Below, in pieces: positions 5,305 through 61,803 of a DNA stretch of 64,000 bases. The notes below the pieces were generated by a model, which was given only the letters and a program-made list of their open reading frames with translations, made no database searches and was not told where the DNA came from. Origin of the DNA: Novakomyces olei (lineage: Eukaryota). The position numbers were made by a program, and so were the translations under genes. Where the stretch lies: NCBI GenBank assembly GCA_016906335.1, contig JADEYG010000004.1:992001-1056000 (forward strand). Direction: 5' to 3'. Positions within the stretch are counted from its first letter, which is position 1. Every line of letters begins with the position of its first letter.

Positions 5305-5637
5305 AGCGACGGCAGTCCGTCGACGACGCGGCGACGCGTCGATAACGTATTATATTATATTATATTATTATATTATTTTTGTTTGGATATAGTTCGTCTA
5401 GCCATAGCAATAGTAAGCCAGAATAAATTAGGGTTAGGATTAGTTATATAATCCTGACACTAACTGTTATAAATGCTGGCAGAAATAATCTTTAATATAT
5501 CTTTTCACAAAACAAAGAAGCAATCTACTCAATAATTTTTTAATTTGAAACATAGAACTGTGATGCAGAAAATGCTCAATTAAACGTCGCACAAATCTAT
5601 GTATATTCATATCCTCTATAGTCATGCAAGTCCCGAC

Positions 5638-6579
5638 TCACTTTGGCTTCCCCGATTGGACGAGCAATCGCAGCTCGGCAATAAGCCCAATATTCTCATC
5701 ATTAACAAGCTCAGCGTTTCTGCATCTCGCGTTCAGAGCGTCCATTGCTGCCTTGTATCCATTGGAAGCTTCATTTAAACCGGAAAATTTCGTTTCCAAA
5801 GCTCTAGTCTTTTCTCCCTCGAGTAATAAAGCATCAGAGGTTTTGCGGACAATACTTAGCTTGTTCTCGGCTAGTTGCTGCAAACGTGCTTCCATGGCCT
5901 CTAGTTTTTCTCCATATTCTCTTTTCATAGTTGCCAACTCTTTTTCCAGCACAGAATTCTGTGCGTGAGCTTGCTCCAGCTGCGAATTGACCTGGTCCGA
6001 GAGCCTTTCTAAATTGTGGACTCTTTCGTCCCTTTGTAGGACAACACTCTCCAGCTCCTTGATTTTTTGTGTTTTTTCCAGCGCGATATTCTTTAAATCG
6101 CCACTCTCCACTCCGGCATCGCGCAGTAATCTTTCGCGATTGGCCAAAATACCATTGAGGCTTTTGATTTCCGTCCGCAGGCGCGATTCACTACGCGTCA
6201 CGTCGTCATAACGCGCTTGAAGCGCGTTACGCGCGGCGCGTTGATTGGTAATCAGTGACTCTTGTATTTCGCATTTGCTATTGAGGACATTTATTTCGCT
6301 GCGAAGCACATCAATCATTCGTCCCGTTGAGCCCGACTTTGTAGGTGTGCCCTGTGGCGATTGAGATTTTGAGGAATTTTTTCCATATTTTTCCCACTGT
6401 GAAAGTTCTTCCGTCTGACTGGCTACAGCTGGTTAGCACTCTTCCACGATATTTATTCATCGTATTCCATTCTTCCACAGCCTGCTTTTATTCTAGCTAT
6501 AAACTAGTTGACTTTTTTTTATACCAATTTCCGCTCGCAGTGTCTCTAGTTGGTGCTGTAACGACGACTCTGATGTCAT
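5638..6579 (-). CDS. She3-like coiled-coil protein (putative myosin V adaptor)
   Basis: Exon 1 MTSESSLQHQLETLRAEI, intron ending GCTAACCAG, then KSGSTGRMIDVLRSEINVL...EIKSLNGILANRERLLRD, resembling the She3 N-terminal coiled coil. The extreme 3' end may be spliced (GTGAGT at the stop). Confidence 0.55.
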
Positions 6580-7112
6580 TATCTGCCGCCTAAAGAACAC
6601 TCTTCTGCAACGGACCCATATGGCCCCAACACTTGGTTGCGCTACACAAAGAATAATGGCAAATTATAGGATTAATTAGATTATTATCTACAAATAAATA
6701 AGCAGTTTATTTTTATTATATTGTATCAATCTAAAATCGAATTAAACAAGAATGAGAGAATAAATTTATTATTATTAGATTGGATTAATTTTAATTGTTT
6801 GGACCATACATTATTTGGACCTTATATATCATTACAGAGCACGTGAACGTGGACGTATGACTTTCGAGCTTTTAGTATTAGACTATGCTGAGATCGAGTA
6901 GAATCTATGCCTCAAAGAGGTCTGACAGTAATAGTTCAGTCTGAAGGTTAGTTTGGGTTGTAACACATCTCGCATTGCTTTTAAATTGGCTATAAAGACA
7001 CACGCCGTCTAGATATGATTTGCGTATTTATATTGTTAAACAACATGCAACCGTAAAACAAATCGTTGATCGATCACGTTTGCTCTGTATATCAATTAAT
7101 GTCCTTTTATTA

Positions 7113-9674
7113 TCACGAATCAGTTTGCTCCAGCTTCTCTTCTGTCTGTGTCCCTGGCGCATCATTTGCGTTTTCCTGTTTAACTGGAGAATTTTCAACG
7201 ACAGAGTCTTCCTGCTTTACATTGCCGTTCTCCAAAATATGGGGTCGCCACCTTTTGAGCAGCTTTTCATTAGTGCTCAAGATGTCCGTGTCTTTTCAAA
7301 ACAATTAGTAACTTTGAGACTTTAAAGCACTTACGTCCTTCTTTGTAAAGAGTTTCAATCAGATCTAAACAGTATTCGGCCGCCGGTGGTCTTAATGAAA
7401 TCAAGTATCTAAGCCGTTAATATGATGAACGCAGCATCCGTTAAAAAAGAATTGAGACAAGACGTAAATAAACGCAACAGAGCACGCACGAAAAGTTTTT
7501 TGAAAATTCTTGAAAATGAGTACAAAAATATTATTCAAAAACCAAAATAGAAAAAAATCCGAATGAACTGAACGTACTGTAAAACAAGGTAACCCAAGCG
7601 TGACTTGTCAGGGTCAAGACACAGCTTCCGGAGTTTGTCGACAATTTGAGGAGACAATTCTGGTAATTCAGAAAAAAAAACAATAATGTATCGGTCTTTA
7701 GCTTCTAAAAAAGGTATCACGGCATCCAGCAATTTAGATGCCCAAACATCATACTGCCTCTCGAGCTCGATGCCGGCAAGTTCTTCATTTGCGCTGTATT
7801 TATTCGCCAGCAAATGATCATTGTACCATTCCTCTGTGAGCCAAGAGAGAGCAAGATCCAGCCGGTCTTTAAATCGATCAACTACATGGTCAAATATCCG
7901 CTGACGAACAAACTGAGCCAGTTGATAAGCAATAGAGGAGTCGCCATCAGAATCAAAGGGCTGTTGTCCGCCGGGAAAGCCTCGAGTGGGCAGTCTACAT
8001 ATTAAATTCATCCAGCGCTCGCGATTCCATTCACCAAGCCCTAGGCCTTGCAGGGCAGAGGTCATATTGAAACTTGCCTTTTTATCCTTGGGCTCTTGTG
8101 TAAAAAGCCGTTCTAGCGAAGCATTCAACTGGCTCGCAATTGCCACTCCGTCCATACTCTCGGGCTCAGGCAGAGTAAAAGCTGCTAAATTAGCCAAATC
8201 GTGCCCAACTTGGTTCTGCACAGTTTCATTTATCAGATCCACATTAACATCGGGCGGCTCGTAATCATCGTCCTCATCAATATCCGCCCAAGGGGCAATC
8301 ATGTCCTCGTCAACATCAATTTTAGGAGCAACAAGATCAGCGTCCGAAAGCGTTTCGGGAGAGCCATTTTCACTACGCTTCAAGAGGCCGTGTAGACTTT
8401 CATTAGAGACTGTTCCATTGCCATTGACTGCTCCCTGGTTTTGCGTGGTATTCAACAAGGTTTGGTACTTTTCCCGTACAATTTCACAGCAGCGAGAAAG
8501 CTCAGCGGTCTCAATATGCTGCATTAGAATGAGTACTATCTGTGACACAGTAGCAGTGGGCAATTGGGTAACATCGAAGGAGGCCAGTGCATTGGCCTCG
8601 TTAGATACTCGCCATACATCTAAGACTTGGGAATTATCTAGCGGCCTTGACAGTTGTACCAGCGGTTCTTTGACTGTCCCAAAGGCTGGAGGCGGAGAGG
8701 CAGGGCCCGCCTTTTTCCGATTCAATTCATCAACCATGCTCTCCCGAGTCCATGTAGGAAGGGCCGACATGTACTGATGAACTCTGTTGGTCAAGGGGCC
8801 CGCGATATTGTACCGCAGCACGTGGTTTAACCCAATTTTTATAGTTTTTATTAGACAACGTGCTTCGAAATCCGTTCGGAAACGGCTACGATCGAGGCAG
8901 CGGGTATCAATGCTGATTATAGAATTCACAATTTTTTGTGCAGTGCCAGGCCGTAACTTTGCGACAAGTATTGCACAGTTTATCACCGCCAGTACGGAAT
9001 CGGTGAAGGGTGTTTCATGAAGGATACATAGTAATCGGTCCAGCAGTCCCATTGCTTCTGCCTCCAACAGGGATATTTGTAAAAACGGATGGTTTGAGGG
9101 GACAGTAGAGAGGGATACGTCTGCCTCGTTGTGCAAATCGCCCATTCGTCTGGGATCCTTTACCGGAAGTGTTTGGGACAGTACGATTCGCTGTGCAAAT
9201 TTAATGCAGGCAAGTTTACAAGCCGGGCTGGAGTCCTCCCAAACGCGCAGCAAAACGCTTTTTAATCTAACCATTTTGGTCCACGTTTCTTGATCCGTAA
9301 AATCGTCCACTCTAGCAACCGCTGTTAGCCTTGAATGGGATCGAATAATCTCAATTCCAAACTTACACCTGATACAAAACCAGAGGATAAATCGAGGCAC
9401 AAACCTGTGCTACCGCGCTCAAGATGCCTTGCTCAGGCGGTAAAGTAAGAGCCTCTAACGCGTCCAACGACTCAATTGCCATATCGATTTTGCTTGCAGT
9501 ATCAATCGCACTGCTCGAGAACGCCTGCGCTAAAAAGTCAGCCAGCCATTGCCGCAACGGCGTTTCATGCCGCTGCGCGACAGGCAAAACCCCTCGAACA
9601 ATTTGCGGATAAAGAGAGGCATCCTGTTGCACGACGATGCGGGCCTGTTCTAATTGCGCAAGCTGTTCCTCCAT
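7113..9674 (-). CDS. PTA1: Cleavage and polyadenylation factor subunit Pta1/symplekin
   Basis: LAQLEQAR..V.QD..LYPQIV.GVLP, LEAEAMGLLDRLL and LALSWLTEEWYND motifs. Four exons; last exon ends ...EQTDS* at 7113. Confidence 0.9.
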
Positions 9675-9900
9675 CAGTTCATGCTGGTAATGCTCCTAGT
9701 AAATGTAAATAATTATAATAAATTCATATTATTTATTTTTAATAATAATATAATAATTTTAATAATTTTAATTTTAATTATTATTTTAATTATAATTATT
9801 ATTTCTATGGCTTTATTCAACATATATCTATTTTCCCTTTTATTTATTTATTGTAGATCGTACAATATATCCATCACATGCGCAAGTCTATACTACAGCC

Positions 9901-11265: not shown

Positions 11266-11576
11266 AATTATATTGAATTATCCTCCTTGGATAGGTAGTA
11301 GCGATATAGTATTGCATAACAAGCCGCCGTGCAAGCACGACAGTTGTTATACTGTATTTCCCTTTTGTTTCTTAATTATAATGCAACCAATATATAGAAT
11401 AACACCAATTTGTAGTAATAACAGCGAGAAATACCTTATAATAATGCCAATGCTAAAATACAAAGAAATAAAAAAAAAAAATTAAAGTATAAATTAGAAT
11501 AATTCAACAAAAATATTAACATACTAACTATCGGCTCTCGGCGTATAAATATATTCAGTCAATTGTGGGGAACAGG

Positions 11577-16204: not shown

Positions 16205-19200
16205 ATGAGTCAGGCTGATATTGCGGCGTACTTTAACAGCATCAGTGATGGTCTGGACACGCATAATTCCGCTGTTGACGATGTGGCAAAACGTATGGAT
16301 CAATATATATGTTTGCGTTTTCAGGTTTTAATTTTAAAAGATTTATCTTCCTTTACTCTCGTCTACAGTTGTGTTCTGACTTTACAGGCATCGAATCGCA
16401 GCCGGGCACTCTTTTACAGTTTATAAAGAACCTGGGTGATTATTTGACAGCAGAGGATGTCACGCTTAGGCAGAATGGTAGGCTGATTGAATACTGGAAC
16501 CGTTGTCGCCTTAAACTGTTTCAAAAAAAAAAAAAGATTTATATTACAATGCTAATACCTTGAAGCTATGAGTATGCTGGCCGATGTGACTGTTCGGCTT
16601 GGAGACGGAACGCTAACGTCTCAGCAAGCCTCTGTCCTTTGCCAGTTTTATTGTGATCGACTGGAAGATGAGGCATGTGTCCCTCAAATCTTGCAGGGCC
16701 TTCAGGCACTTGCGGCCATGAAGTCTCTGCCGCCTTCACAGGCGAGAGACATGTGTCGCGATGTAGTGAATACGGTAGCTATGCCCAATTTCACTCAACC
16801 CGTGAGAAACAAGGTTTTCACTATTGCCGAGACGATTTTACGGCAGCCACGATTTGCGGCTGCCCTCAATACTGAAGCAAATGATGCTATTGTCTCTGGA
16901 ATCGTGGGTATAATGGACGGAGAAAAGGACCCACGCAACCTTTTGCTAGGTTTCCGGCTAGTTGAGCAAGCAGTAACCTGTCTGGATATAAAGGGCCGAG
17001 TTGCTGACGTTTTTGACTGTGTCTTTTGCTATTTTCCTGTCACTTTTCGCGCAGCACCAAACAATAACTCTCTCAAAATATCACCCGACGATCTCAAAAT
17101 CGCCCTCCGCTCTTGCCTTACACGCACTCCTTTTTTTGCGGACTTACTAGTGCCCTCGCTTATTGAAAAAATAAATGCGGCTGCAGTCTCGGTGAAGAAG
17201 GACGCTATCGCTACACTTCAACAGGCTCTGGACCGGTGGCCATCTACGCCCTTTGAGCCGTTTTCTCAGCGAATCTGGAATGGATTAAAGTTCGAATTAT
17301 GGGACAGTACGGATGAGGAGGTCACACTGGCCTCCCTAAACGCTATAACTGGTCTTTCCCGTAATTTGCTGCAAAACGGTGGCTTTCACGCTTTTGCCAC
17401 GGTTGTATGTAACGAGTGTCTTGACCAAATGCGACAGAATAATGCTCCCAGTATTAAAACCTGTGGGGCCACATTAGCGGCAATATGTGCAGCTGGAAAA
17501 CAGGCGCTGGAGACAGTGTCAGCACAGACTCTTCCAAGTATTCTAACGATATACAGTAGTAGTAGAGACATTTTGTCTAAACAAGAGGCAATACTAACTG
17601 CCGTTAATTGTATACTAAACGCAAATGCCTTGCTTTACCCTGAAGCTGAACGGGCGGATGATGCGACAGTACTGGCGCCCTTTGGACAAGAGTTTTTCAA
17701 GACTTTTGCGGAGAAAGTCGTCTCTACCGGTGTGACGGATGATGCTACACGTGTGGTTGCCGTGAAGGGACTGCTTTTCATGCTGAGGGCGCGGCGGATG
17801 CTCGACGAGTCTTGCAGTCGAATGACTATAAAGTTTCTGAGCGAATGTGTAATGTCGCCCAATCGGCCCGTTGGAGCAGAGGCAATGGCGGCGCTGGCTG
17901 AAGTTTCTGTAATTGCTTCTGGCCTTGTGCTTGAAATAGTGCTGCCAATGATGCAAAGTCGGCTGGACGAGATTGAATCTGAAGGTTTTGGTGGAGAGCA
18001 GTCTAGTGAAGAGCAATCAAGTGAAGGACAATCAAGTGAAGGACAATCAAGTGAAGGACAATCAAGTGAAGGACAATCAAGTGAAGGACAATCAAGTGAA
18101 GGACAATCAAGTGAAGGACAATCAAGTGAAAAAAGGCAAGCAAAAGGCGAAAAAGTGTTTAAACGAAATGTAAATGACAGCAGTCTTAGTCTTCAGTACA
18201 GGATTGTTTTGGGGCACATTGCGCGCTTGTGCCGGGCGCGAGCAGTGACACGGACTGTGATTGTTCGTATTGTAAACAAAATTGATAATTTATCTTCTCG
18301 GCAAGTCTTTGACCGTGAAAGCGAGGCAGAGGCTGACGAATTGAAGACTAGATTTATTCACCCGCTCGTGCAGACACTGCAATTAGCGCTAGTGGCCTAT
18401 GAAATAGCGGGAGAGACTGCCGAAATTGCTTATTTTTCTAAAGATATTCTTGCTCACCTGCTGACGCGCTGCATTTTGCCTATTGCGCAGGGCAAAAACA
18501 ACTCTTTGCTATTAGCTGACAGCGTTGTTGGATCCGTGCAGGCAGTATCTATACTCTGCACTCGAAATTTAGACGTTGAACAGCAAAACGAGTTGGCCGC
18601 TAATGCGAACAAACTGTTCCTGGGCCGCTCAATCTCCGAGCTCATTCACGATAAATGGCGTACGCTTGTGGCCAACAAGTTTGCTCCTTTTCATGACAAC
18701 ATGACCAGGGAGGAGTACAGGGCTTTTTCTATCTACATTGCTATTGATGGAGCATTAAGGAAACAAGTCATTAACGCTGTGCCCTTTAACACAGACTTTC
18801 TCGATGCCGTTTTGGCTATCGGCAGACAAGTTCGCCAAGAGCAAATGCAAGGGTCAGATGTATCGCCTTTGCCCGTATTTGAACTATTTGCAAATAGGCT
18901 AAACAAGTGTACCGATGACGCTGGCTTAAGTACGTACTTGAGCGGGCTTTTACCCTCTCTATGGACAAGTGTAGAGCAAAGAGAAGGCGGTGATCAGTTT
19001 GCAATCGACACTATTGCCTGGACGATCAAGAGTCTGAGTTTGCGGGGACAAGTTGAAGCCTTCAATCAGCTTTCAAAGCTTATTGCCAAGCTCGATGGTC
19101 CACAGGGAAAGCAACTGGCACAGTCAACATTGATCGTTTTTGCTAATGATAAACTGCTGTGTAAGGAGAATTTTACCGTGATTAGACTGCTTTTTCGGCA

Positions 19201-20178: not shown

Positions 20179-21219
20179 CTAATTGTACATTTGGAGAATT
20201 CTCGACTCAATGCCGTTATAAATGTGGTCGTGTTGAATGATTTCGAGATTTTCGGCTTCCGTCTCCATAAGCTTGTGTGGCTCTTGGCCAGGCGCAAGAG
20301 CTTGGCCGGCACTAAGGTTAGGCACACCTCCCATACTGTTCATATCCTGCGAGGCCGCTATAATGAGAATCAGTACAGGTTAAGATGAATAAACATCTAA
20401 AATTGAAATAATAAATTAAAATAATAAATTAAAATAATAAATTAAAATAACGGCTCCAAATATCCCATACCGTTATCGGACCCGAGGATCAATTCGTACA
20501 CGGGACGTAGACCAAACAGGTTCAAAAAGTACCACGATAACGATGAGACCCATTGTGCATCCAATTCACGCGTGGCCACTCCAGACTGCAGGAGAGATTT
20601 GAAGCGAGCCGTGAGGGGAAACGGCAGTTTCACTAAAAGCTTAGGACCAAGGCTCACAGCATTCCCTCACTTACAAAGAACAAATCCGGAAAAGAAAAAA
20701 TTGACCCAGCCCATGATAAGCGTGTTTGGAACAATATTGGCAATATTGCCCTTGAGCATTCCCGTCATCGCCTCCATGCCGGCAGGATCCATTGGGTTAG
20801 GAGCCCGGCCAATTGCACTTGCGTCCTTTAAATAATCTTTAGATCGCAATGCTGCCTGAACACTATTCTTGCGCTGAGTAAAAGCAGAGTCTAACAGATG
20901 ATTCGCATTCTGCCGTAGAATACCAGCCCGAGTCAGGATCCGTCTGCAATTAGAAAAGTGGTTAAATACACGAATAAAGTAAGTCATGAAAAAGCGACTT
21001 TGTAAATGCGTCTTAAAAGTCCGATCTTACTGCTCTCGTAAAGCCTTGCGGTCGAGTTTTTTAGGGCTCGATTGCAACAGAATCGTAATATCATTGCGCA
21101 AAATCCCAACAAGAATCATAACACCCATGATAGGCAGCAAGACCCAGTTGCGCAGCGCTATAGTGTCAGATCTAAGCTGAAAAAATTTAAATACCAGGAT
21201 CGAGAAAGAGATCGTTCAT
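20179..21219 (-). CDS. EMC3: ER membrane protein complex subunit 3
   Basis: [55 protein letters not shown] and [15 protein letters not shown]. Four introns. Confidence 0.95.
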
Positions 21220-21586
21220 TGCTGCGGCGGTGGACGGCTACTCCAACTTGAATTGCAGCAAGTGGAGGTCGTGAGCCATACATATTATATAATGAAAAGT
21301 AAGCTTGTCTTTGGAATGAGTGGTTCTTAATTAGGGTTAGGGTTAATTAATTTCTTTTATTTACGGTTAGTTTCTTTTATATCTCGTACTGGATCGCTGC
21401 AATTAAAGAGGTTTAATTGGCCAACCAACCATTCAGGCCACCAAACTGTGCAGCGTACGTCTTTTTATGTTTAATTACATCTTGTATTTATGTTCAGTGC
21501 AAGGAAATACATAATCGCCACCTACTGATACATTTACCGCTGTAACCCTTCTAAACCCAGACTAATCCTGGCTCTGTCTTTGCCTT

Positions 21587-22914: not shown

Positions 22915-25900
22915 ATGGCAAAGTATCGCGTTGGGTACAATGAAAAAGGCCGCGCGAGCGGTATTGCCCGGCAGCAGCGGCTGCGGCGTGCGCGCACACA
23001 TCGGCGTGAACGTGCGCCTCAAGTTTCAGAAAATTCTGAATATATAGGCGATACGGCAAACAATAGAAGCTTGGAAGCCACGCAGTTGCGTGAACAAGTG
23101 AGTACTTTGCGCGTTTAATGAACTATTGGCTAAACGTGACGCTTTGCGTTTTTAACAGTTAAATGTGGGGCCTGAAATGTCGGCAAAGAAGCGGCGGCGC
23201 TTGGAAAAGTATATCGTAAGTTGGCTATACCAATGAAAATAAGAAAAAGAAAGGGATTAAAGGTAGAAAAATTGGAAAAATTAGAAATGAAATGAAAATA
23301 AAATAAAAACCAAATAATAAAGGAAAGATGAAAGACTAAAAATCTGAAAACTAAAAAAAAAGAATCAAAAAAAAAAAAAAAAAAACATAAACAAATGGAT
23401 GTATTGCTTATTGAGATAGGAAACAAAATTGCGAAAAGATGAAGGCCGTAAAATGCTAGAGCAATTAGGTGAATTGCAAAGGCAAGGAACGGGTGATTTT
23501 GCTAGTTTTAAAGATCTACGTCGAAAGCCCAGCAAGCGCGAAGAAAAAGCGCAAAGAGCGAAAGCGACTGAGGTTCTGGATCACGAGAGGAGCTTGAACG
23601 ATGAGAGCGATCGATACAGCGATGTACAAGAAGACGACGATAGTAATTCTCTAAAGAGCAATGAGTCTGACGCGGACACTACAAAAAGCGACGATGAGTC
23701 AAATGATGGCAGCGATTCGGCCTTACAAACCAATGAAAAGTCGTCAGCAAGCTCAAGTACGGGCTTTGGCTCATTCCCCGGTGCGAGTGTGGTCACACGT
23801 AAACAGCCACGTTCAAGTCTGGCTTACAATTGGCGAGCACGTTTAGCTGCCAAAGCAGAGAAAGCCCAAGACTCTGACGATGATTCTAGCATTTCAGGCT
23901 CAAGCACTTCCGGCACAGAGGAGCTTAGCAACGAGCAAGAGGCACAGAGTGCCCCAGACAATAGCGCGTCTCTTAATACTGCTGGTGCTGAACGATCAGC
24001 GGCTTTCAAGGAGTGGGCTACTCGCCAGACTTCCCACAATTCTACTGGCGTTGCTACGGCGACGGATCTGCCAGAGTCTGTAGTGCAAGAGCACAAGCGC
24101 AAGGTACGGGACCGTGACACTTCTCCTGAACCTGATCTTATTGGGCGCCATGCAACTGGTCGTCGAGTGACATTTATCACCCCAGACAGACCGGAGGCCG
24201 TTCAACAGGTTCGAGAGCAGTTACCGGCTTACGGCGAAGAGCAAAGAATTATGGAACAAGTCTTTGCCCACCCTTGCATAGTCATCTGCGGGGACACTGG
24301 GAGCGGAAAGACTACACAAGTCCCACAGTTTCTACTCGAAGCTGGATTCGGGTGCCCTGGGAGCGATACGCCAGGTATGATTTGTGTTACACAGCCTCGT
24401 CGAGTCGCTGCTGTCAGTATGGCAGCCCGAGTCGCTTATGAATTGGGGCCGGAAACTGGACTGCACGTGGCCTATCAGGTACGCTTTGACAGCAGAGTTG
24501 GGCCGGAAACGCGCATTAAATTTGCTACTGACGGAGTTTTATTACGAGAGATTTCCAATGATTTTCTCCTGACTCGGTACAGCGTGATTGTGGTCGATGA
24601 AGCACACGAACGGAGCATCAATACTGACATTCTGATCGGATTGCTTAGCAGAGTGGCACGGTTGCGTGAACAAAAGGCAAAGGAGACGGATGATATAAAG
24701 GTATTTTTGTCACGAGATGTAATCATTTATTTATTCATTTATTTTATTTATTTATCTTATTTATTTATTTTATTTGTTTATCTATATTTTTCTTATTCTC
24801 TTGCTAATACTAATGCCAGCCTTTGAAATTGATAATTATGTCAGCTACTCTTAGGGTTAAAGATTTTGTCGAAAACGAAGAATTGTTCCCTGTACGGCCG
24901 CCAGTAATAAACATTAATGCTCGTCAGTACCCGATTACTGTCCATTTCAGTCGAAAGACGCCAACAAATTATATTGACAAAAGTTATCGCAAAGTTTGCA
25001 AAATTCATGAACGTCTGCCACCTGGAGGTGCGTTGCATTTGCTTAATATCTATATAAATCTATAATCATATCTATTCACACATCTTTATTATCATTTAAT
25101 TAATACTATTCTATTTTTTTATTTTTTATTTTTATTTTTATTTTTATTTTTATTTTTATTTTTATTTTTATTTTTTTTTATTTTTTAAGTACTTTGTTAT
25201 TTTATTATTTTATTATTTTATTTATCTATTTATTTTATCAATGTTAACGACAGGCATTCTCGTCTTTGCGACCGGACAAAACGAAATTGTTCACCTGTGT
25301 AAACGGCTACGTGACCGCTTTGGCCAGACCGAGAAAGAAATGACTGTCCAAGTAGACAAGTCTCTTATATCTCTCGAGACGGAAGACATGGAAGGCGACG
25401 ATGAATTTGCTGAAAACGAGGACGATCGCAGTGACGATTATTCTAGTGACACTGAAGGATCTAGCAATGACAATTCGTTGGCAATTGACGATGACTCTGA
25501 TATAGAAAAGACGGAGGGCAGAAAGGAAAACAATGAACACTCCAAAAAGTCAGCTCTTCGTGTCCTTCCCCTGTACTCGCTCCTAACTACACAAGAGCAG
25601 ATGCGTGTATTTGAGCCAGTGGAGTCGGGAACACGGCTATGTGTGATTGCAACAAACGTGGCTGAAACCAGTTTAACTATTCCTGGAATTCGGTACGTTA
25701 TTGACTGCGGAAGGAGCAAGGAGCGGGTCTATGATGAGCAATTGGGCGTGCAGTCTTTTGAGATTGATTGGATAAGCAAGGCTAGTGCAAATCAACGGGC
25801 CGGCCGAGCCGGCCGAACTGGGCCGGGACACTGTTACAGGCTATATTCTTCAGCAGTGTTTGAGCGAGATTTTGCAGAGTTCTCCACTGCTGAAATTGCC

Positions 25901-27117: not shown

Positions 27118-27358
27118 GTCTGGCTGTATCGAAGATAATAGTAGGGTTAGGGTTTATATAATAATAATTCAGAGTAATTTTTGCATTTCAAACGCATTAC
27201 AAAAGGGGGCAATTATTTCGAGAAAAGTAGAAAGCCACTAAGCAACGCACCGAATCGAAAAAGCCATGCTTTAAATTGAACCGCCACTCTCTGACTCGAG
27301 TCAATCTGTCAAAAATCTAAATACTAGAACGAAAACTATGGCAAACAAGTTGAAAACA

Positions 27359-28635: not shown

Positions 28636-29036
28636 GAGGCGCGGCATTCTGGCGTGGAGGACGCGTATGGTGGCCGTTGCCACGACGACTATGCCCCGCC
28701 ATCTATATATTCCGGATATATAGTATACGTTTTATATATAAAATATTCATTATAATTGAAAGCCAACATTAATTCGTGTATAATCATTATTAGGAATATA
28801 CATGCTACATCCATAGGGTTAGTTAGGGTAAAAGGAAAATTTAGGTATATAGTATTAAAACCCCTGATCAATAGGTACGTACACTATGTCTGATATACTA
28901 ATCAAGTTTGAACAACTACCTTAATTTATTATATATTCAGCTTGGCATACTATACTTGTGTGGCAAGCAATGTTACAAGCCGCTCCGCCATATATGAATA
29001 AACCTATCCAAAACGCCAGCCGATGATATCATCATC

Positions 29037-31964: not shown

Positions 31965-34482
31965 TTAAAAAAACAAATTGCTATCAGTCTTCATCCAAGT
32001 TGTTGGAGACTCCAAATTGACGCCACCCGCACTTCCAATTGGCTCCCATGAAGCACTCATACCACTTCCAGCGGCACCCGGAGGAGGAAACAGTGAGCTT
32101 GAAGGTCTTGCAGGCTCTAGATTTTGTGTAGAAAGAACCGGTAATCGCGACCGGGCAGATCCTGAATTTGACCATGAGCCTCGATTATTGCTGATATTAA
32201 TATTAGAATTATTATCATTGTTATTATTGATATTATCATTTTTATTGTCAGTATTATTATTGTCATTATTAGTATTATTATTGTTGTTGATGTTATGATT
32301 ATTATTTCCCGTAGCAATGTTGAAACTGCTGTTTGCTGCAACTGAACCGGAATGAAGACCATTTCCTCCGTTTCGGCCGGCAGCTCCCGTTGAAGAAGGC
32401 CGAAGAATGGGAGTTGAAGGCTTTACTTCGCTCCGACCTTGAAAGGCCGATTTGATACTGGCAGCAGAGCTGAAAATGTACCTGTCGTCGCCTGCGCCAA
32501 TAAAAGACCGACGTCTTTTATCGGTTCTGCTATTGTTATTGTTGTTATTATTTTGCAAGACGCCGAGGTAAGAAGGGTCCACTCCCGAATCAACGACCAT
32601 TTCTCTCCCATTAAACGCGTCATTTGAAGAGTAATCTCTCTCCGGAAACGGTGCCGTTGCCGGTCGCTGTAGTCGACTGGGATCGATGTCCATTTCCCTC
32701 TGCTCAGCCAAACTCGTTCTGTTATTACAGCTCTTGTTGCCGTTGTTATTGCTGTTGTTGTTATGGCTTGTATTATTATATACAGAGGGTGCAACTTGTC
32801 CTGCTGTAGCTGGCAACTGGGGAGGGGTAGCGGCAACATGGAACCCAGAGCCAGTAGGCAAAGGCGCCGTCGGAGGCCTTCCATTATTAAAATGATGCTT
32901 CAAAGCTTGATTAGACGCACGTTGATCCAGGAAAGAAGAGGCGGTAGAAGAAGAGGTAGAAGCCGATATTGACGGCGGTGATTTCATCGTTTTCTGCTTA
33001 GACTTAGCCGCCTTGTTTTGCCATTTTTGTGAAAAACTGGGAGGCACTTGGAGTCCGGTATCACTCTGTCTTGCATTTGGATACTGGAACAAATCTTGTT
33101 TCCTTCGATGGCCCATTGTTAAAACATTAACAAGGTTAGGAAACGATTCAAGCCGGTCTGTTTGCTGAGGCTCGTCCAGGATTGGTGAAAGATTTGCATG
33201 ATAATCGTCCTCCTCTTCGTCCTCTTCTTCATCCGCTTCATGCTCTCCTCCTTCATCTTCAGCCTCATTTGCTCCATCATTGCCAGCAGTCTGAGCACGG
33301 GTCCTGTGACCGTTCCCGACGGGCCTTGGGTACATTCTGGAGCCCTGTGCATGGTAGAAGGACGAAGCAGAATCTTGCAGCCCGAACCCCGGCTCCGTAG
33401 GGTTAGGGTTAGCGTAAGGGTGGTGCATTGCAGAGGCAGAATACTGGACATCGGGCCGGGCGTAATAACCTCGGGGATCAGGATCGATTGGCACAGCATG
33501 AGGTAAATGATCAAGGTGCATAAACTGCCCTGCTGAGGTAGAATCGCGTGACTGTTGTTGAACATTAGCAGACTGATGTTGAAACGGAGATTCTGTTTTC
33601 AACGACAACGGTTTATGCTGCACTACGGGCCTCGATTCCGTAGCGTCTATATACTCAGACTGAGCGGGTAAAAAGGAACTGAAATAAGCAGACGAAGACG
33701 CAGATCCCTTGCGAGAAGGCATCAAATTTCCACCCAAATTTGTATTGACATTTCCGTTACTCGTGTTGGCTAAAACAGCATTGGGGATAAGAGGGGACGG
33801 TGAGCCTCCATTCATTACGGGGGAAGCCGTGTGAGAGTCAGCTGAAGTAGAATGCCAGCTTGATTTGTGAGCGTGTTTTGACGGCCTTCCGCCCAAATTG
33901 TAAGGGAATGAATCTGATCGAGAGGCAGCGTTTGCTGTTGCAGTAGCATTTACAGCTGAAGACTGATCAGAGTCGTGGTCGTCGTCCTCATAAGCAAACT
34001 ATTATTAGCAAAAGGCAAAAAGATGCGTAGAATAAAAACGCATTTGAATATTTATTTAAAAAAATATTTATTTAAAAATGGAACGAATCCGAGAATATCG
34101 AAATGTTTATTAAAAGCAAAAAATAATTCAATTCAATTCAAAAAAATAGTATTTTCGAAACAAAAAGCATTTAGAAAGTATTTCAAGCATGATACACGAA
34201 ACAAGCAAATAAATAAAATAAAAAGTTCGCACATACGTCCAACGGAGTCTTAAATTCATATGGCTCCTGAGCTTGAGTTCGTTGTACAAGGTCAGGATAT
34301 GAACAAGAGGAAAAGATGTAGATGCGGCCTTTACGATCAATTATGGATATGGCAGTATCACAGCCCGTGAGAACAGCAAGCTCGTGAGCCTTCTTGTAGA
34401 GACCATGCTTCCTTTTGATAAAAGTAACGCCCCGCGCTCGATCATCTTTGATCGGCCGGATTGTAATCTTTTTTCGGCCCAT
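31965..34482 (-). CDS. mbx1: MADS-box transcription factor, Mbx1-like
   Basis: MGRKKITIRPIKDDRARGVTFIKRKHGLYKKAHELAVL..C..A..IIDRKGR resembles S. pombe Mbx1 as recalled. Intron 34236-33999 joins it in frame to a long S/N-rich exon. Confidence 0.85.
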
Positions 34483-35927
34483 GCCCGGCGGCGGTGACTC
34501 TAGAGACAGATATCTCGAAAAGTTGGGCTGCTTATTATAACGGCAAACCTCTTCCGTTCAGCCAGAGCCCGTTTGTTCCTACTTTAGCCGGAATTTATGT
34601 ACTCTTTTCCTGTTGTCGGCCGCCGCACTGATCCCAGTAATTTGGGGTTTCTTTTCGAAAAAGTCGGGGAACAAAAAGTCGTATAAGCAGTCGTACAGTT
34701 TAACCGCAGATTAGTTTATCTCGTCAACTTTATACGCAGTTAAACCCAAATTGGGCTTGCGTGAGATATTCTGAAATATTACTAGCGCGATGATATCATT
34801 TCTCTTGTGGAAAAAAGGTCTTGTCTAGTTTGCTGGCGCTTGTGAAAACAGTGAGCGAGACAACGCTATCTCCTTCGTCTGAGCGAGACGGGTTAAGCAG
34901 TATTGCTGTTCTTTATTTCACGGTCATGCGCTGAGAATAACTGACGTTGACGCGTTCATTCACACGATAATCCAGCTTGCTGATTGCTTGGGCAAAGTTC
35001 ACGTTTATGCTTAAATTATGTATATCCATAAGCACGTCGCCTGAGCAAACAGTGGTGTGCGCCGAGTATATCTGTACGATTGTTCTCTAACAAGACTAAA
35101 TGTAGGGTAAATACAAAAATTCTGCGTCCCTGTAAATCACGCAAACAGTGTGCGCGCGAAATTGTCGATTATTTAATTTACTGATTAATGGATTGACTGT
35201 GCAAACGCTCTCGCAAACAGTTTGGGACAAGAAAAAATGGATACTCTTGTCGAGTTTAGCAATGTCGGTCGGTATCCCACATGTGCATTATTTATGCCCT
35301 TAGAATACTACGAAACGCGCCCAAATGTGATTCAGCTCGTATCACACGAATTAGTAATATACAATACACAAAATATGGCTGCACGGTAGTTAACTGAATG
35401 CAGCTAGCATTACTTGAGACGTTGGCGAATACAATAATTAATCAATGAAACAAGACAATAGTAAATCAATAAAACAATACATAATACAAAACCATAAAGT
35501 ATTGATTACTAATGGAAACACGGTGTCGTATAAATGCCACAATTACGCGCTTAGGTTAGGGCTCGGTCCTCCGAGCTCCGTGAGTGGGACAAATAATGTA
35601 AGCATCGCCAAAGCTCACACAAACCCAAACACACTAATCCGAATTTTCACGATGGCCTAAAGACTTGAGGTAAGCAAGTTCGTCTTTAATTTTGAAAGAA
35701 TTACAGAGCACTGACTATCTGTGATAGACGTCCTTTATTGCCGTGTGCAGAATTGGTTCAATTGACCCATTTTCGCTTGACACTTTTGCTTGTCGAAAAA
35801 TTGTCGAAACGTTACGTTTCCTTCCCCTAACAACAACTCTTTGAAACATCTGCAATCATGGCCTTTTCATATACTTACAACGCACATTGTGCCTCTTCTT
35901 TTACCAGCAGCCGGTCTCCTCAATCGA

Positions 35928-37463
35928 ATGGACCCGCTTACACTTTACACGCATGTCGGGGCCCCGTCCGGTGGGGCATTTGACCCCTCCGTGGCGGGCT
36001 CTGGACAGCCCGCCGTTGGACCGGCGTTTAAGCCTCCAACTGTGCCTCTATCTTCTCCGCAGTTTGTGGTTCCCTCACACCCGCTTGCGCAAGAAGCGCC
36101 AGGCAGTGTCGAGCCTGATTTGATTTCTGACTTTTCTCCAAACGACTCTTTCTACTCGCCCTTTTCTCCTTACACTCCTCTGCAGTCGTTTGCTGTGAAT
36201 GGCGACGGCAGCGGGTCGTCTTTGGCCTTTTGCCCGGACGCAGTGCCGCCGGATGCCTTGTTTAACGATCTGCCAGACATGGGTCTTGACTTTAATGCTC
36301 AGGACACTGTCTTGTTTGCCCCTGTGAACCACAATGGCCGCAAGAGCAACAATTCCTTCAAGAGGACTGCAACTGGCGGCAGCCTTGGCAATAATTTTGG
36401 CAGTAATACTGGCAACAAGCCTGGCAACAAGCCTATTGCTCTGGACTGTGCCTTTTCCTTTTTTTCTTCACAGCCCGCCCAGCCAGACTCGGGCAGGGTC
36501 AATGTTGAAGAAGCTTTGCAACAGCTGTTGCAAGACTATGCCAACTCTGTCAATGGCCTGGATTTTGCGCCGACTAGCGTGGATCCTCCACCCTTTTCCC
36601 CTTCAGGAGCCTTTTCCTTTGAGGATTTTAGATTGCCCGCAGAAGCAAAAGAAGCAAAAGAAGCAATTGATTTGCAATTTACAGTGTCTCCGCCAGTGTC
36701 GACAGTTTCTAATAGCCAAACGTACCGTGACTTGCCGCTCGATGTGCCCGGTTTTGATGTGCCTGATTTCATTTTTCAGGCTCCATTACCCCCACAGGCA
36801 GCCACTGCCAGCGGCCATCAGCCCATACTCGCATCCGCTCAGGTCAAAGCCAAACCGGCGAGTGCCAAAAAGAAGGCCAAATCGGCCGTTTTAGGCGCCG
36901 GCTGTACAAGTAAAGCAGGCAGCAATGTCGCTGTTCGATCAGCAGCTGATCATGTTTGCCACAATTGTGGCACTCGAGAGACTCCGCTGTGGAGACGGAC
37001 TGCTGATCGACAGCATATAATCTGCAATGCCTGTGGATTGTATGAAAAGCAGTACAAACAGCCGCGTCCCGTTACTTCAGACTCGGGCGTAAGCCTTCGT
37101 GTCCTTGGAGCCCACGCGCTTGGCCACCGCTCGCTGAACGGGCACCATATGCTCGCAGGTATTCTGGGGTATCAGCATATCTGCGCCAGCTGTGGCACTC
37201 GAGAGACTTCGCTGTGGCGTAAATCGCGACTTGCGCCGGGAACTTACGCTCCGCCTTTGCCCTGTGGCAATTCTGTCACTGAAAGCGAAAGCGAGCCAGG
37301 TTCTCCAGCGCTTCCGCCTTATGACCCGGACTTTGTGGTTGTGTGTAATGCCTGTGGCCTTTACGAAAAGATGCACAACCGACCACGGCCAGCAGGCTAC
37401 CGTCCCCGCAAGGGGCCCTTGACCCGTCGACGAAGTGAAAAGAGCCAGAAAGAGGGTGCTTGA
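35928..37463 (+). CDS. GATA-type transcription factor with two zinc fingers
   Basis: CHNCGTRETPLWRR..ICNACGLY and CASCGTRETSLWRK..VCNACGLY. First ATG at 35928. Probable 5'UTR intron 35670-35727. Confidence 0.88.
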   Translation: MDPLTLYTHVGAPSGGAFDPSVAGSGQPAVGPAFKPPTVPLSSPQFVVPSHPLAQEAPGSVEPDLISDFSPNDSFYSPFSPYTPLQSFAVNGDGSGSSLAFCPDAVPPDALFNDLPDMGLDFNAQDTVLFAPVNHNGRKSNNSFKRTATGGSLGNNFGSNTGNKPGNKPIALDCAFSFFSSQPAQPDSGRVNVEEALQQLLQDYANSVNGLDFAPTSVDPPPFSPSGAFSFEDFRLPAEAKEAKEAIDLQFTVSPPVSTVSNSQTYRDLPLDVPGFDVPDFIFQAPLPPQAATASGHQPILASAQVKAKPASAKKKAKSAVLGAGCTSKAGSNVAVRSAADHVCHNCGTRETPLWRRTADRQHIICNACGLYEKQYKQPRPVTSDSGVSLRVLGAHALGHRSLNGHHMLAGILGYQHICASCGTRETSLWRKSRLAPGTYAPPLPCGNSVTESESEPGSPALPPYDPDFVVVCNACGLYEKMHNRPRPAGYRPRKGPLTRRRSEKSQKEGA

Positions 37464-44345: not shown

Positions 44346-44362
44346 TTAGGGTTAGGGTTAGG
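44346..44362 (+). promoter_or_regulatory. Interstitial telomere-like motif TTAGGGTTAGGGTTAGG upstream of FCY1 (longest of seven intergenic copies)
   Basis: Directly visible. Related copies at 5428, 21331, 27142, 28814, 35551 and 61732. Confidence 0.65.
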
Positions 44363-44454
44363 TTTTATCTTATCGTGCATAGTTATTCAAGCAATCGATC
44401 AAGGCTGATATAATCGTTAGTCTGACACTGATGATATAATCAATAAACAAAGAC

Positions 44455-45400
<946 letters not shown>

Positions 45401-54569: not shown

Positions 54570-55272
54570 CGACTGCAGATTTGCTCGAGACGTGTTTAGC
54601 TTGTTTGGTGCAGTTATACATGAATTAGAAACGAGTCAGTGGTCACATTTGTACACTAATTGTAAATCCGCACGTTTACGGTACGGAGAGGGCAATAGAA
54701 TTCTGAGCCTGTCTACACACAATTTTGTTGTTTATGTAGTACTCGTGTCTCCAAGCGTGAATGCTCCTTTAATTAACATTCTATAGGCCATCAAATTTTG
54801 GGAATATCAATTCAATTCGAATACGACAATACCGAAAAAAAAACGAGATCACTTAATAAGCGACAGCATTTTGTTATACATCTGTTTAACATTCAAATGG
54901 CGAAAAATAAATCAAGAAGAATAGAAACAAATCAAAAAATATTAAAATCGTTGGAGAAAATGCGCAGAAAAGCAAAGGGAATCTGAAGGCAATGTTGCCA
55001 GACAAGAAGGCATAAATTATAACCGTGCTGCTATAATTGCAGTGCCGACGTAAATATAGTACGTAAAATATAATAAAAAAGTAAAAAGCTAAATTCTCCA
55101 CATTTCATATACGCTTGTAACAATAAAACAAAGAATCACATCTGAGAAAGCATGAAATTGATAGCAATACAGATCAATAAATATAGGATAGACGATTATA
55201 AATAATTAATAAAAAAAACACATTTAATCATTACAATTACATCTTCATCCAAGATCAACAAACAACCACGTT

Positions 55273-58200: not shown

Positions 58201-58893
58201 ATTGGCCCTCCGTAAGGGAACAGGTCGGAGATAAGAGCCAGTACCAGAGTTTAGGACTGTCTGATTGCCGGTGGCTGTGAAGGTACCTCCAAGTAAGACA
58301 GTATTATTGCTAGTTTTATGTATTGCATGCACAGGTCCATTAACGCCGGCAAATGGCAAATTTACGTATGAGCTTTGTCTGACTGACCAGGCAGCAACAT
58401 TGCTAGAATTGCCACCTGCAAAACCAAAATCTCCGCCAATGTACACAGTTTCGGTCGAAGAATCACATAATAAAGTATGCACAACGCCTCTTAATTCTGC
58501 TCCGTCTCCAAGAGCCGAGACTTGCTGTGATTGGGTATCATAAACGGCTATATTCACAGCCGGGACAGATCCAACGGCGTTAAAGTGGCCGGCGATGAAA
58601 ACGGACGCTCCTATTGAACAAACGGCTGCCACTGTACCATTAATTCCTGCTTGGGAAACAAATAACTGTTCCTCTGTAACGGAAAGCAGCTCGGTGCTGC
58701 CGAAATCCGAGCCGTGCGGAGCACTTAACGCCGAGGACAGAGACTCGTTCCATATACTAATTCCGTCAAAGGCCCCAGCAAAGACTACCCCTTGTAGTTG
58801 AGTAGCATAATTCGCACTTTGCACTCCCGTCGCTAATAACAAAAGAAATACGGATTGCAACAGTAATTGAATATTTTGCCGTGCATGCGCCAT
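55273..58893 (-). CDS. RAX2: Polarity landmark protein Rax2 (type I membrane protein)
   Basis: Signal peptide, repeated V.GG.F beta-propeller motifs, RLVALPLNGIMNFTYTDP, C...CPL, FTPGC..DGTC..RG and the C-terminal TM GFVVLIGLALAL. Confidence 0.92.
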   Translation of the reverse strand: MAHARQNIQLLLQSVFLLLLATGVQSANYATQLQGVVFAGAFDGISIWNESLSSALSAPHGSDFGSTELLSVTEEQLFVSQAGINGTVAAVCSIGASVFIAGHFNAVGSVPAVNIAVYDTQSQQVSALGDGAELRGVVHTLLCDSSTETVYIGGDFGFAGGNSSNVAAWSVRQSSYVNLPFAGVNGPVHAIHKTSNNTVLLGGTFTATGNQTVLNSGTGSYLRPVPLRRANITSEGGSQSNASAIICPQSGDGGNNENIDYLFEDSTAGSWTANLDFEIRPLRLRLYNSRAEDHGTRTFRLVALPLNGIMNFTYTDPDSGRNMSCTSECPLRQDGYQDFDFVNNIGMTGFTVYVSEWYGSGAGLSGIELLQSQDSAFAVQEYNEQCQRQSGDSYAVQHGGPWQVLTPASLQPAGAAPYLSANLSGSAITTSSVEIYPQLMSARAAGNYSVRLFTPGCMADGTCNLRGSITASVYYAAGSDPVRTVVYESNYYDKYDDIFQGIMFASNGFRPHVVLSPTEGQSGPINIVAQSVQFIPLGSEMVTYNGLFEYDPSSDYSSPEVASTLTPFEEIGVSSFAGNATVLALESIGETLIIGGRFNGSGIANFYRRNSGSVPGLNGAVTSMLRLDDSVIVGGNFTDIVNSSASGGHRNQLLHLARYSPSTDNFSALGGGVNGPVTDLSFWNTTGVNGSELSLISVTGDFDSFFYSNGTLVECRNFALWNDALSEWFSLDELPFYFDGQIVQSSNNLSIGRLDAFQQRSLKGAFAFENNNKDDKSNNNQANSLQSYGLLFNDTFSGSAVNSVAFLNGSSAIVLGGHFELASSTLRNLISVSNDSEIRGFGGDMDGNSTFSALHILDNHLFAGGLVTGHLGGSRISGLAVWDLNSGNMTSVQPAGLYSDGDNLNPAAVSALLSDTSSVYVGGNFSFAGSLGCPGFCAYAFNDHQWNNPAAALSVSGNVSTMLWQSEHTMLIAGSFNINNSACFVASYSTADHEWSTIIDDSLPGSVSAMTMTNSSSSDIFVAGSEPFFIQKYDGKSLHDLATSNFSGNSYVRDLYFVERASSRSGNSLLPNDYDLIAAGYFELDGYDGDFAAVVHDGTRWLPLIAASIRSTGDNGYIATIQSNSKTSFRTQHSLDRGFVVLIGLALALFITFLLIAVGYLVHHLRHRLEGYERAPAYFAGNEFEKFPPDQVITELGRGGNTAPRI

Positions 58894-59551
58894 CTAATCT
58901 GGAAAGGTAAATAAAAGCAAAACAAACAGAAAAAAAGAACATCAAAAACAAGACAGAAATCAAAACCAAATAAAGAGATAAAATACGGTCAAAACGCAAG
59001 TGAAATCAACTAAACACATTAAGATGTTTGTTTAATCCTCAGAGACTCTATTTTGGGAGTAGAGACGAGTTCAATGTCTTTTGATGGAGAATTGATCCTT
59101 TGAACTTACCCTTGAAGGCTTAATCAACCCTCTTCTCCTCCTCTTTAGAACCGCACACGTGGCAAATTGGCTTCAGACCGCTTCTAAATTTAATTCATCA
59201 AGGTAGATTAATGCTCTGTTGAAGCACAAAAAAGCAATTTATTCTGTAGTACAAATGCCTTTTGCCCGCGTTGTTTTTGATGTGTCTGTTTACCCTCGTA
59301 TTTCCCCTTTTCCTTCCTTGTTTTAATTATATTGTTGAGTTGACCGATTATAATGTTTTATTTTTTGAAGTCTTTTTACTTTCTTGTGAACTTTGTTATT
59401 TCACTGAATTGCTTACCACTCACCCCATAAGTTTAGCCTCTCCTTTAAGAAAGGCACTAGAAAACAAACACTGACCGGCGGTAGTATTGCTTGTGAGAGG
59501 AATCTTTTAGCTTGACCGTTGTATTACTTGATGGTAGCTATTGTTTACATT

Positions 59552-59661
59552 CGCGTATCAATCGCGGGAGCACGTGACGTAAACAAGAAAAGTATTATAA
59601 ATAGAAACTACAGTTAAATCAGCCAACGCGTTTCGTACGCGAAATTGTAATGACGACGCGT
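59552..59661. promoter_or_regulatory. MCB/SCB-like CGCG cluster upstream of RAX2
   Basis: ACGCGT at 59626 and 59656, ACGCGAAA at 59637, and further CGCG cores near 59552 and 59563. Confidence 0.6.
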
Positions 59662-59905
59662 AAATGTACAACTTCTCACCCTTTCGCGCTGCGCATATGA
59701 AGTTGGCGACATAGTTGGATTGTACTTGATAAGCAAATAGAATTGGCCAACTATGTACAAAACAGATAAGAATGTTTTATTCATATGGACTAGTATTCGC
59801 TGCAATGATTATAACATAATAAGATCAATGGCAGAATTTCTATTTACAACCCTTATGAAACACCAATCTACTATTCGTCTAATGTTGTCAATAATTCTAA
59901 CCATA

Positions 59906-61628
59906 TTAAACCCTCCGCCTTTTAGATCGTCGAGCCGTAAACATTTCGCGTTCGGCCGCAGTGTCCTCTGGTTCAATTTTCACTTTATGCTCAAGCACTT
60001 CTTTTTCATCTTTTGCAGTCGCAATTTCTATTTTTTGTGAAAAAAGTTCTGGATCCGCTTCGGATTTAATTACCGTCGGTTCAGGTTTTACTGGTTTGAC
60101 ATCGCGCACCGTGTCGTTATCGGCCTGAAACGCTCGTAAATCCGCCGTAAATAGTACAGAGTGGGCCTGTAAAAAGTTAGTGATTAAATCGACCAAACGA
60201 CTTGTGGCACAATTCTCAACGCTGTCGATATAAGTATTTTTGTTTATATTATTAATATTACTACCGTTTTCAAAATTAATCATCTCCCTTACCCATCCTG
60301 CGTACTCGCCCCAAAGTTTACGGAAAAAATCGCCTACTGCAAGGTAGGAAGCCTGTGTCATAGAAGTGCCCTTTAGTTTTTTAAACTTGTAATCCCGCGT
60401 TGCAATTTGCCAAACTAGAATCACAGTCAGGAGAAGGAAGACAAAAATATTAATAAACAATTTAACTCAACAACACACAATAAATACATCAAAAATAAGC
60501 AAAAGAGATATAAGACAAGCGCCATTGTAATTTATTTTTCACAATTTAACTTTAGCGAATCCACGATCAGGAATGAAGTGTATAAAACAGCTCTTACCAT
60601 GAGTATCAACGGGAACGGCTTCCGTCTTATCCAAAGACATGAGACACTGGTTGTTAATCATCAAGCCAATAAAATCAGAGTAATTACCACGCAATCCGCG
60701 ACTTTAGCTCCAACGCCCATCAGTTCGCAAAGAGAATCATGAACATCGCGATAGGGCAAGCTCCGTTGCTTTAAAAGCCATTCATGCCCCCCTCGTTCTA
60801 GCACCATTTGTGCAGTTATTTGTATGAATTTTGCCCTATAACCGAACCCTAATTGCCGTAATTCCGTCTCTGTGGCTCCTGCTGCCAACCGCTCAATCGG
60901 GGGAAACGAATAGTATTCGAGTCCAGATAAAGTCCCCCTGTACTCACCGTATTTTTGACACAATTTATCAATCTTGTATTAGCATAAAGCACACGAGAAT
61001 GAAAGAGGAAAGATAAATTATTGAGAATAATAATAAACTATCAAGAGCATTGATAAAAAGCAAATAAATCACGATTCGAATACCATCTGTGTAATACGGG
61101 GAATGTTATTATTGCTAGAGCAAATAAAACTGATCAAGTTCTCCCACGGATCTTGTCGTAGGATACGCACACCGGCAAACTGTACTGATTTTTTTCGGAA
61201 ATGTGGGTCTGCGCTAGACCATTCGGCGTATAGTCTTTGTAGTGGAACTTTAATATTAAAATAATCGTAAAGAAAGTCAACAGTCGCCGAGTCCGGAACT
61301 TGCTTGTTTGCCTGGTAGTAAACTTGGTCGTCTGTTCATAAGCTTTGTGGTTTAATACAATATTTTGTTTTCTATTGTTTGCTTGCTGGACGTGTTCGAT
61401 TCGATCTGTTCTTATTCTCGTTCCTGATTTACCATCTTGCCGAACAGTGATAATGCCACGGTCAAAAGCACAACTCCATTCCTGATCGCCCGAAATTCGC
61501 CATCGAAAGGCCTGCCCGCACTTCAAAGTCCGATCAAGTCTAACTGCGAAAACGGTTAATTCCACAAATTGACCCGACTTACTTTCGCCTATTCCAATGC
61601 GCAATTGCCGCCATTGGGAACCTTTCAT
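59906..61628 (-). CDS. OGG1: 8-oxoguanine DNA glycosylase/AP lyase
   Basis: LKCGQAFRW, GVRILRQDPWENLISFICSSNNNIPRI, LGFGYRAKFI, GVGAKVADCV, VPVDTHVWQIA and YAGW/AHSVLFTADL. Six introns. Confidence 0.95.
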
Positions 61629-61803
61629 TTTGCAGCAGACACGTTCACTGTAATTTAATATAATATATGGATTTAATATATATAATGTTGTACTTGCTCC
61701 ATAATTGCTATCGAAATCATATGGATAATTGGGGTTAGGGTTAATTCTCTACATTTTAAGGTTAACTTGATTGTGAGAAGTATAACAAACATATAATTTA
61801 GGC

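Follow-up and report, generated by a model that had tools for sequence, protein, structure and literature searches.

The closest described counterpart of the tandem TTAGGG motifs discussed here is the recognition site of the Schizosaccharomyces pombe protein Teb1, a member of the Tay1 family with two tandem Myb motifs (PMC7952879). The motifs in question are scattered through a 64-kb segment of the Novakomyces olei genome (GenBank assembly GCA_016906335.1, contig JADEYG010000004.1, positions 992,001 to 1,056,000), which was analyzed as a whole and is referred to below as the window. PMC4839565 gives the minimal Teb1 recognition sequence as two mammalian-type repeats in the form 5'-AGGGTTAGGGTT-3' and describes all canonical histone promoters of S. 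pombe as carrying AGGGTTAGGGTT(t/g)tgat. The same paper reports a dissociation constant of 53 nM for Teb1 on the two-repeat HisBox of these promoters in vitro and cites its detection at histone promoters in vivo by chromatin immunoprecipitation on microarrays. Many TTAGGG-bearing promoters are bound by Teb1 (PMC5128866).

Several other systems reuse telomere-type repeats. In Saccharomyces cerevisiae, sites for Tbf1, which are found in small nucleolar RNA (snoRNA) promoters, in subtelomeric antisilencing regions (STARs), and as blockers within divergent promoters, resemble the window motifs in being of the TTAGGG type, in lying in promoters (in the window, putative ones) of unrelated genes, and in having an orientation untied to gene direction; they have no orientation or spacing requirement, and Candida albicans uses a palindrome instead (PMC2834713). 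Tbf1 keeps distal activators from acting on promoters and, among factors at differentially regulated divergent promoters of S. cerevisiae, is the most enriched (PMC4551913); the positions of the window sites would fit such a boundary or insulator role. However, S. cerevisiae Tbf1 accepts clustered single TTAGGG units at any spacing, whereas the unit in the window is a strict head-to-tail pair. The C. albicans palindrome, TTAGGGN6CCCTAA, also offers a Myb protein two telomere-type half-sites in promoters, as the window sites are predicted to do, but it is an inverted repeat, and therefore without polarity, and it serves ribosomal-protein promoters, whereas the window sites are direct repeats and adjoin no ribosomal-protein gene. 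The plant telo-box, AAACCCTAA, is likewise a telomere-repeat motif reused in promoters. It has one unit, extended by an A-rich stretch, and is associated with genes of the translation apparatus, in contrast to the tandem pair found next to mixed housekeeping genes in the window. Finally, the yeast sites of repair-associated telomere addition (SiRTAs), hotspots of de novo telomere addition, are telomere-like, and their strand decides which chromosome fragment can be healed; outside the subtelomeres they are mostly coding, whereas the window sites are mostly intergenic and match a site for a Myb protein that binds duplex DNA.

The window contains eight tandem TTAGGG loci, six of them clean and two degenerate through indels, all G-rich on the plus strand. 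The view that we consider likely is that these are promoter or boundary boxes, predicted from their sequence to be bound by a Myb protein specific for TTAGGG that is either of the Tay1/Teb1 type or similar to TRF/Tbf1, and that their common strand is due to chance. The eight loci and the sole minus-strand candidate are as follows.

Site 1, 5428..5443, plus strand: TTAGGGTTAGGATTAG, one mismatch to the Teb1 12-mer; in the tandem gap between two minus-strand genes, ~124 bp upstream of a small minus-strand gene (ATG at 5304) and ~200 bp beyond the stop (5638) of a coiled-coil gene, also on the minus strand.

Site 2, 21331..21345, plus strand: TTAGGGTTAGGGTTA, holding an exact AGGGTTAGGGTT; ~245 bp beyond the end of a DUF3605 gene and ~50 to 112 bp upstream of an EMC3-like gene, both on the minus strand; the EMC3-like gene has two candidate ATGs, 21283 and 21219.

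Site 3, 27142..27154, plus strand: TAGGGTTAGGGTT, holding an exact AGGGTTAGGGTT; 25 bp past the stop of the DEAH helicase gene (27117, plus strand) and 657 bp before the PCNA ATG (27811, plus strand).

Site 4, 28814..28830, plus strand: TAGGGTTAGTTAGGGTA, a tandem made degenerate by the loss of one base; the PCNA stop lies ~180 bp to its left, and the ATG of a GH5 glucanase gene (29037, plus strand) lies 207 bp to its right.

Site 5, 33397..33414, plus strand: GTAGGGTTAGGGTTAGCG, holding an exact AGGGTTAGGGTT; within an Rlm1-like MADS-box gene (minus strand), in its long coding exon, where it reads ...ANPNPT...

Site 6, 35551..35561, plus strand: TTAGGTTAGGG, a tandem that is likewise degenerate and lacks one base; in a divergent gap, flanked by the Rlm1-like gene (minus strand, ATG at 34482) and a GATA-factor gene (plus strand, ATG at 35928, 367 bp away).

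Site 7, 44346..44362, plus strand: TTAGGGTTAGGGTTAGG, 2.8 units, holding an exact AGGGTTAGGGTT; the stop of MSH1 (44100) lies ~250 bp to its left, and the ATG of a cytosine-deaminase-like gene (44455, plus strand) lies 93 bp to its right.

Site 8, 61732..61743, plus strand: GGGTTAGGGTTA, whose GGGGTTAGGGTT differs from the Teb1 12-mer by one mismatch; in the divergent promoter between OGG1 (minus strand, ATG at 61628, 104 bp away) and a Sdc1/Dpy30-like gene (plus strand, ATG at 61930, 187 bp away).

Minus-strand candidate, 60839..60852 (within the stretch 60834-60852), minus strand: degenerate TTAGGGTTCGGTTA, within a three-unit telomere-like TTAGGGTTCGGTTATAGGG; in the body of the OGG1 gene and compatible with chance.

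A scan for (TTAGGG)2 with at most one mismatch returned 8 matches that fall into 6 loci, all on the plus strand, where 0.14 were expected, and none of 100 dinucleotide-preserving shuffles of the window reached 8 tandem matches. Scans in all six phases of the repeat, from exact 9-mers up to 14-mers with 2 mismatches, gave the same six clean loci (sites 1, 2, 3, 5, 7, and 8) and no locus on the minus strand; additional weak 10-mer matches were even by strand, with 4 on each. Sites 4 and 6 are one-base-deletion variants that are detectable solely when indels are permitted. With such edits allowed, 12-mers with at most one edit mark 7 plus-strand loci and no minus-strand ones (simulated, ~0.9 for both strands together), 15-mers with at most two edits mark 7 and 1, the latter being the candidate at 60839-60852 (simulated, 0.5 for both strands), and 13-mers with at most two edits, for which there is no simulated figure, mark 8 plus-strand and 4 weak minus-strand loci. 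Single TTAGGG hexamers, by contrast, are found 26 times (16 on the plus and 10 on the minus strand) against 23.4 expected. Their lack of enrichment indicates that the tandem pair is the meaningful unit.

The initial annotation of this segment had listed seven tandem TTAGGG sites, all G-rich on the plus strand. All seven are real, two of them being the indel variants just mentioned, and their common orientation stands, with no clean minus-strand locus and with one degenerate minus-strand candidate that appears at looser thresholds. The list was one short, as the clean coding site 5 had been missed.

Exact copies of the AGGGTTAGGGTT 12-mer start at 21333, 27143, 33399, and 44348, and three further matches have a single mismatch; all of these are on the plus strand, and 0.14 such matches were expected. 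The core 12-mer is thus identical to that of the S. pombe HisBox (AACCCT-box), the architecture of two direct telomere-type repeats is the same, and the window sites would likewise lie upstream of protein-coding genes, in a host that resembles Taphrinomycotina. By sequence, the boxes qualify as Teb1-type sites, and binding by such a protein is predicted. The two systems differ in that the window lacks histone genes and its sites lack the 3' extension (t/g)tgat: the bases that follow them are attaat, tatata, AGGttt, attctc, and AGCGta. They also differ in the telomeres themselves, as the repeat of the present organism is presumed to be the same TTAGGG, unlike that of S. pombe. No Tay1/Teb1-type tandem-Myb protein was found among the 31 open reading frames (ORFs) of the window scanned against Pfam.

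Placement of the sites was assessed on an approximate gene map of 28 genes and 27 gaps, in which gene starts are our own ATG calls from the ORFs. Intergenic DNA makes up ~26% of the window (16.6 kb) and holds 7 of the 8 sites (binomial P, ~5e-4). Each of these seven lies in a gap that contains a putative gene start, with the ATG 93 to 660 bp away (~50 to 112 bp for site 2). The earlier statement that a gene start follows each site within 90 to 400 bp is approximately correct in five cases, with site 3, at 657 bp, as the exception. On our map, the sites occupy 5 of 11 tandem, 2 of 8 divergent, and none of 8 convergent gaps. Of the seven intergenic sites, five have 50-bp flanks that are 60 to 80% AT on both sides, in a window that is 57% AT overall; at site 6, the left flank alone is AT-rich (60%). 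Nothing is common to the flanks of different sites except the motif itself and simple AT repeats, so the boxes are not copies of a dispersed mobile element, an origin that was thereby ruled out.

The same data bear on the idea of a neutral origin, in which the motifs would be short interstitial telomeric sequences left by telomerase during repair of double-strand breaks in open AT-rich intergenic DNA and without any regulatory role. In vertebrates, telomeric repeats are reported to have been inserted where DNA had broken (PMC8537989), and several features would suit such an origin: the presumed TTAGGG telomere repeat of the host; the short length of the sites, at 2 to 2.8 units; the single-base deletions in two of them, as in decaying insertions; and the location of one in a coding exon. 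However, insertions would not be expected to retain the exact Teb1-required 12-mer at four sites, their lengths should spread rather than cluster tightly near two repeats, and the 7-to-1 intergenic placement is far from random. Neutral insertion also predicts neither a common strand nor a preference for promoter-bearing gaps, and we regard it as the least probable of the explanations considered here.

Two further readings of the repeats were set aside. Recruitment of the Polycomb repressive complex 2 (PRC2) by telomere repeats needs much longer arrays, and that length requirement is far above the size of the sites in the window. It is known from Neurospora, where telomere repeats are described as recruiting PRC2 (PMC8214302). 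Formation of G-quadruplexes was set aside as well, each site having no more than two or three G3 runs.

If the boxes are indeed Teb1-type sites, both Myb domains of a single protein would fit into each two-repeat box. In the AT-rich gaps in which the boxes sit, where one gene ends and the presumed promoter of the next begins, the bound protein would most likely be a general promoter or boundary factor, one that could mark the promoter, aid the recruitment of activators, or shield the promoter from transcription or regulators of the neighboring gene. The box would be expected to work in either orientation; gene starts are found beside the sites on both strands, as expected for an orientation-independent site. 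The suggestion that the motifs are a telobox for Tbf1/Teb1-type Myb proteins in promoters is well supported by the AGGGTTAGGGTT matches, the intergenic share, and the promoter-bearing gaps, and the insulator or boundary role proposed along with it has its precedent in S. cerevisiae Tbf1, by analogy with which the window boxes may act.

A number of observations weigh against this assignment to promoter or boundary boxes. The strict HisBox combination, a tgat extension in a histone promoter, is absent from the window sites. The flanking genes are mixed housekeeping genes, and they include no histone, ribosomal-protein, or snoRNA gene, the known target classes of Teb1 and Tbf1; among the ORFs and Pfam matches of the whole window, no histone gene was found. 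Site 3, 25 bp past one stop and 657 bp from the next ATG, is in no obvious promoter position, and neither is the coding site 5, which may have arisen by chance or be an intragenic box. The absence of boxes from convergent gaps is not significant once the length of these gaps is considered (~0.1). The placement of all eight sites on one strand (two-sided p, 0.008) is accounted for by chance only through the way the window was selected. Finally, comparison with other fungal loci provided no conserved context. We used 80 PCNA-anchored metagenome loci (831 kb in total), in which PCNA is at most 70% identical to that of the window. None of 11 neighboring window proteins had a match in these loci at an E value of ≤1e-10, which means that there is no synteny and, with no shared neighbors, no orthologous gap in which conservation of the sites could be compared.

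The metagenome loci nevertheless give a measure of density. By the same rule that finds 6 tandem loci in the 64-kb window, they contain 10 matches in 831 kb, several of which are duplicates, and the exact AGGGTTAGGGTT, present in 4 copies in the window, is not found in them. Thus, box density is roughly an order of magnitude higher here, at about one box per 8 kb. This density, and the use of the box in an organism whose telomeres are taken to carry the same repeat, are what is unusual in this genome. Ordinary Teb1/Tbf1-type sites would extend a known logic, in which telomere-repeat Myb proteins double as promoter or boundary factors, to an early-diverging ascomycete with presumed TTAGGG telomeres; a single repeat would then function at the ends of chromosomes and also at about one in four promoters of the window. 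Such a case could be of use in tracing the moves of Tay1/Teb1 between telomeric and transcriptional roles.

The same-strand run was the basis of a more far-reaching proposal in the initial annotation, namely, a polarity at the level of chromosome arms. The run as such is real: the two-sided probability of a common strand is 0.008 for all 8 sites, 0.016 for the 7 originally listed, and 0.031 if the two degenerate sites are left out. All three are post hoc and carry no correction for the choice of the window by its pattern, and the figure of 1/64 given for the seven sites holds as a one-sided value. Genes next to the sites start on both strands, so that the orientation of the sites is independent of the direction of neighboring genes, as had been claimed. 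Chance is a likelier source of the run than polarity.

Polarity can be formulated in two ways, each of which appears improbable to us. In the general form, the boxes all face one way across tens of kilobases, or across entire chromosome arms, regardless of gene direction, through replication-fork direction or through selection for a telomere-pointing G-strand that acts as a healing seed or a polar barrier. In the more specific form, to which we would give no better prospects, co-orientation over at least 56 kb would turn the boxes into a polar signal on the scale of the chromosome, with a telomere-repeat Myb protein as its reader, in the role of a replication-direction-dependent barrier or loading site or of chromosome-healing seeds with the G-strand outward. 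The counts agree with either form (6 plus-strand loci to 0 for the clean sites and 8 to 0 at 12- to 13-mer stringency), as does the lack of correlation with adjacent gene starts. The box is also ~8 to 13 times denser than in the other fungal loci, which suggests a box system unusually expanded in this organism, and in the subtelomeres of yeast, telomere-addition sites favor the TG orientation (PMC10055226). However, outside the subtelomeres the same yeast SiRTAs, which come closest to a precedent, are unbiased, with 372 sites in one orientation and 356 in the other (PMC10055226), and the tolerance of S. cerevisiae Tbf1 for either orientation speaks against a polar signal as well. The statistical case comes from a single window chosen after the fact; at p values of ~1/64 to 1/128 per window, a genome that comprises a few hundred of them is expected to show several such runs by chance. 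The degenerate minus-strand site in OGG1 would be an exception to the rule. Over the 16.6 kb of intergenic DNA, the GC skew is -0.005 and the AT skew is +0.009. Skews this close to zero give no sign of replication-linked asymmetry, and they rule out that the plus-strand bias stems from an asymmetric base composition of the strands. The 10 tandem matches in the metagenome loci are too few for a test of co-orientation elsewhere, and literature searches aimed at it found no published chromosome-level polarity of such boxes, which is no proof of its absence. Arm-level polarity is not upheld by the 6 to 8 sites of one pattern-chosen window; were it to hold genome-wide, it would represent a eukaryotic counterpart of bacterial polar motifs.

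A different source of the run would be the genes themselves. If the G-strand-sense orientation were favored upstream of the target gene, the central block of plus-strand genes would produce a run of plus-strand sites. Genes in the window are indeed clustered by strand, with minus-strand genes at ~4 to 16 kb, plus-strand genes at ~16 to 45 kb, and minus-strand genes again at ~45 to 64 kb, and five of the seven intergenic sites (sites 3, 4, 6, 7, and 8) have a plus-strand start 93 to 657 bp to their right. However, sites 1 and 2 adjoin only minus-strand starts (at ~124 bp and ~50 to 112 bp, respectively) and would have to serve unannotated plus-strand transcripts or be exceptions, site 8 is equally near a minus-strand start, and a split of 5 to 2 is indistinguishable from random. 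This explanation seems to us as doubtful as polarity. We thus return to promoter or boundary boxes for a telomere-repeat Myb protein: for a factor that works in either orientation, the common strand would be read as a chance run in a window picked for its pattern.

On the basis of the ORFs and Pfam matches, the window represents an intron-bearing segment of a fungal chromosome. The genes that could be named are those for Sec10, symplekin/Pta1, MMS19, EMC3, the DUF3605 protein, the DEAH helicase, PCNA, the GH5 glucanase, the Rlm1-like MADS factor, the GATA factor, Ydj1, MSH1, the cytosine-deaminase-like protein, Prp31, Ams1, Rax2, OGG1, the Sdc1/Dpy30-like protein, and a vezatin-domain protein. 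The closest named matches of the Ydj1 protein come from Taphrinomycotina (Savitreella, Schizosaccharomyces, Protomyces, and Pneumocystis) at 59 to 65% identity; with identity no higher than this, the host is best viewed as a Taphrinomycotina-grade ascomycete with no close sequenced relative among the matches listed. No tRNA genes were found in the window, nor any Rfam families at the gathering score.

Several genes next to the sites have features of their own. In the EMC3-like gene (minus strand), the upstream candidate start at 21283 opens a short frame, whereas the downstream one at 21219 gives MNDLFLDP, followed by a stop or by a very short GT...AG stretch. Just past the first long exon of the helicase gene, at 24851-24859 on the plus strand, there is a 1.5-unit motif, TTAGGGTTA, that is probably intronic; by our own estimate, chance alone would give ~1.3 such 9-mers on each strand. 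The Rlm1-like MADS-box gene (31965-34482, minus strand) has a long asparagine-rich, low-complexity coding region with runs of N, including a TAT/ATT periodicity of 3 bp at 32195-32306, and box 5 is read in frame in this gene as ANPNPT. The cytosine-deaminase-like gene (plus strand) consists of four short exons at ~44455-45376, and this division by introns is why the ORF list lacks it; between its putative exons, at 45040-45207, lies a (TTTA)n microsatellite of ~40 copies. The divergent OGG1/Sdc1 promoter contains, at 61804-61842, ~60 bp to the right of box 8, a perfect 15-bp direct repeat, TATCCTTTAACAGCA, in 2.6 copies, which may be the site of a second factor. Another 15-bp tandem repeat, nearly perfect (8.4 copies, 98% matches), is found at 18005-18130 within the MMS19 ORF, where it encodes SSEGQ units in an otherwise conserved protein.

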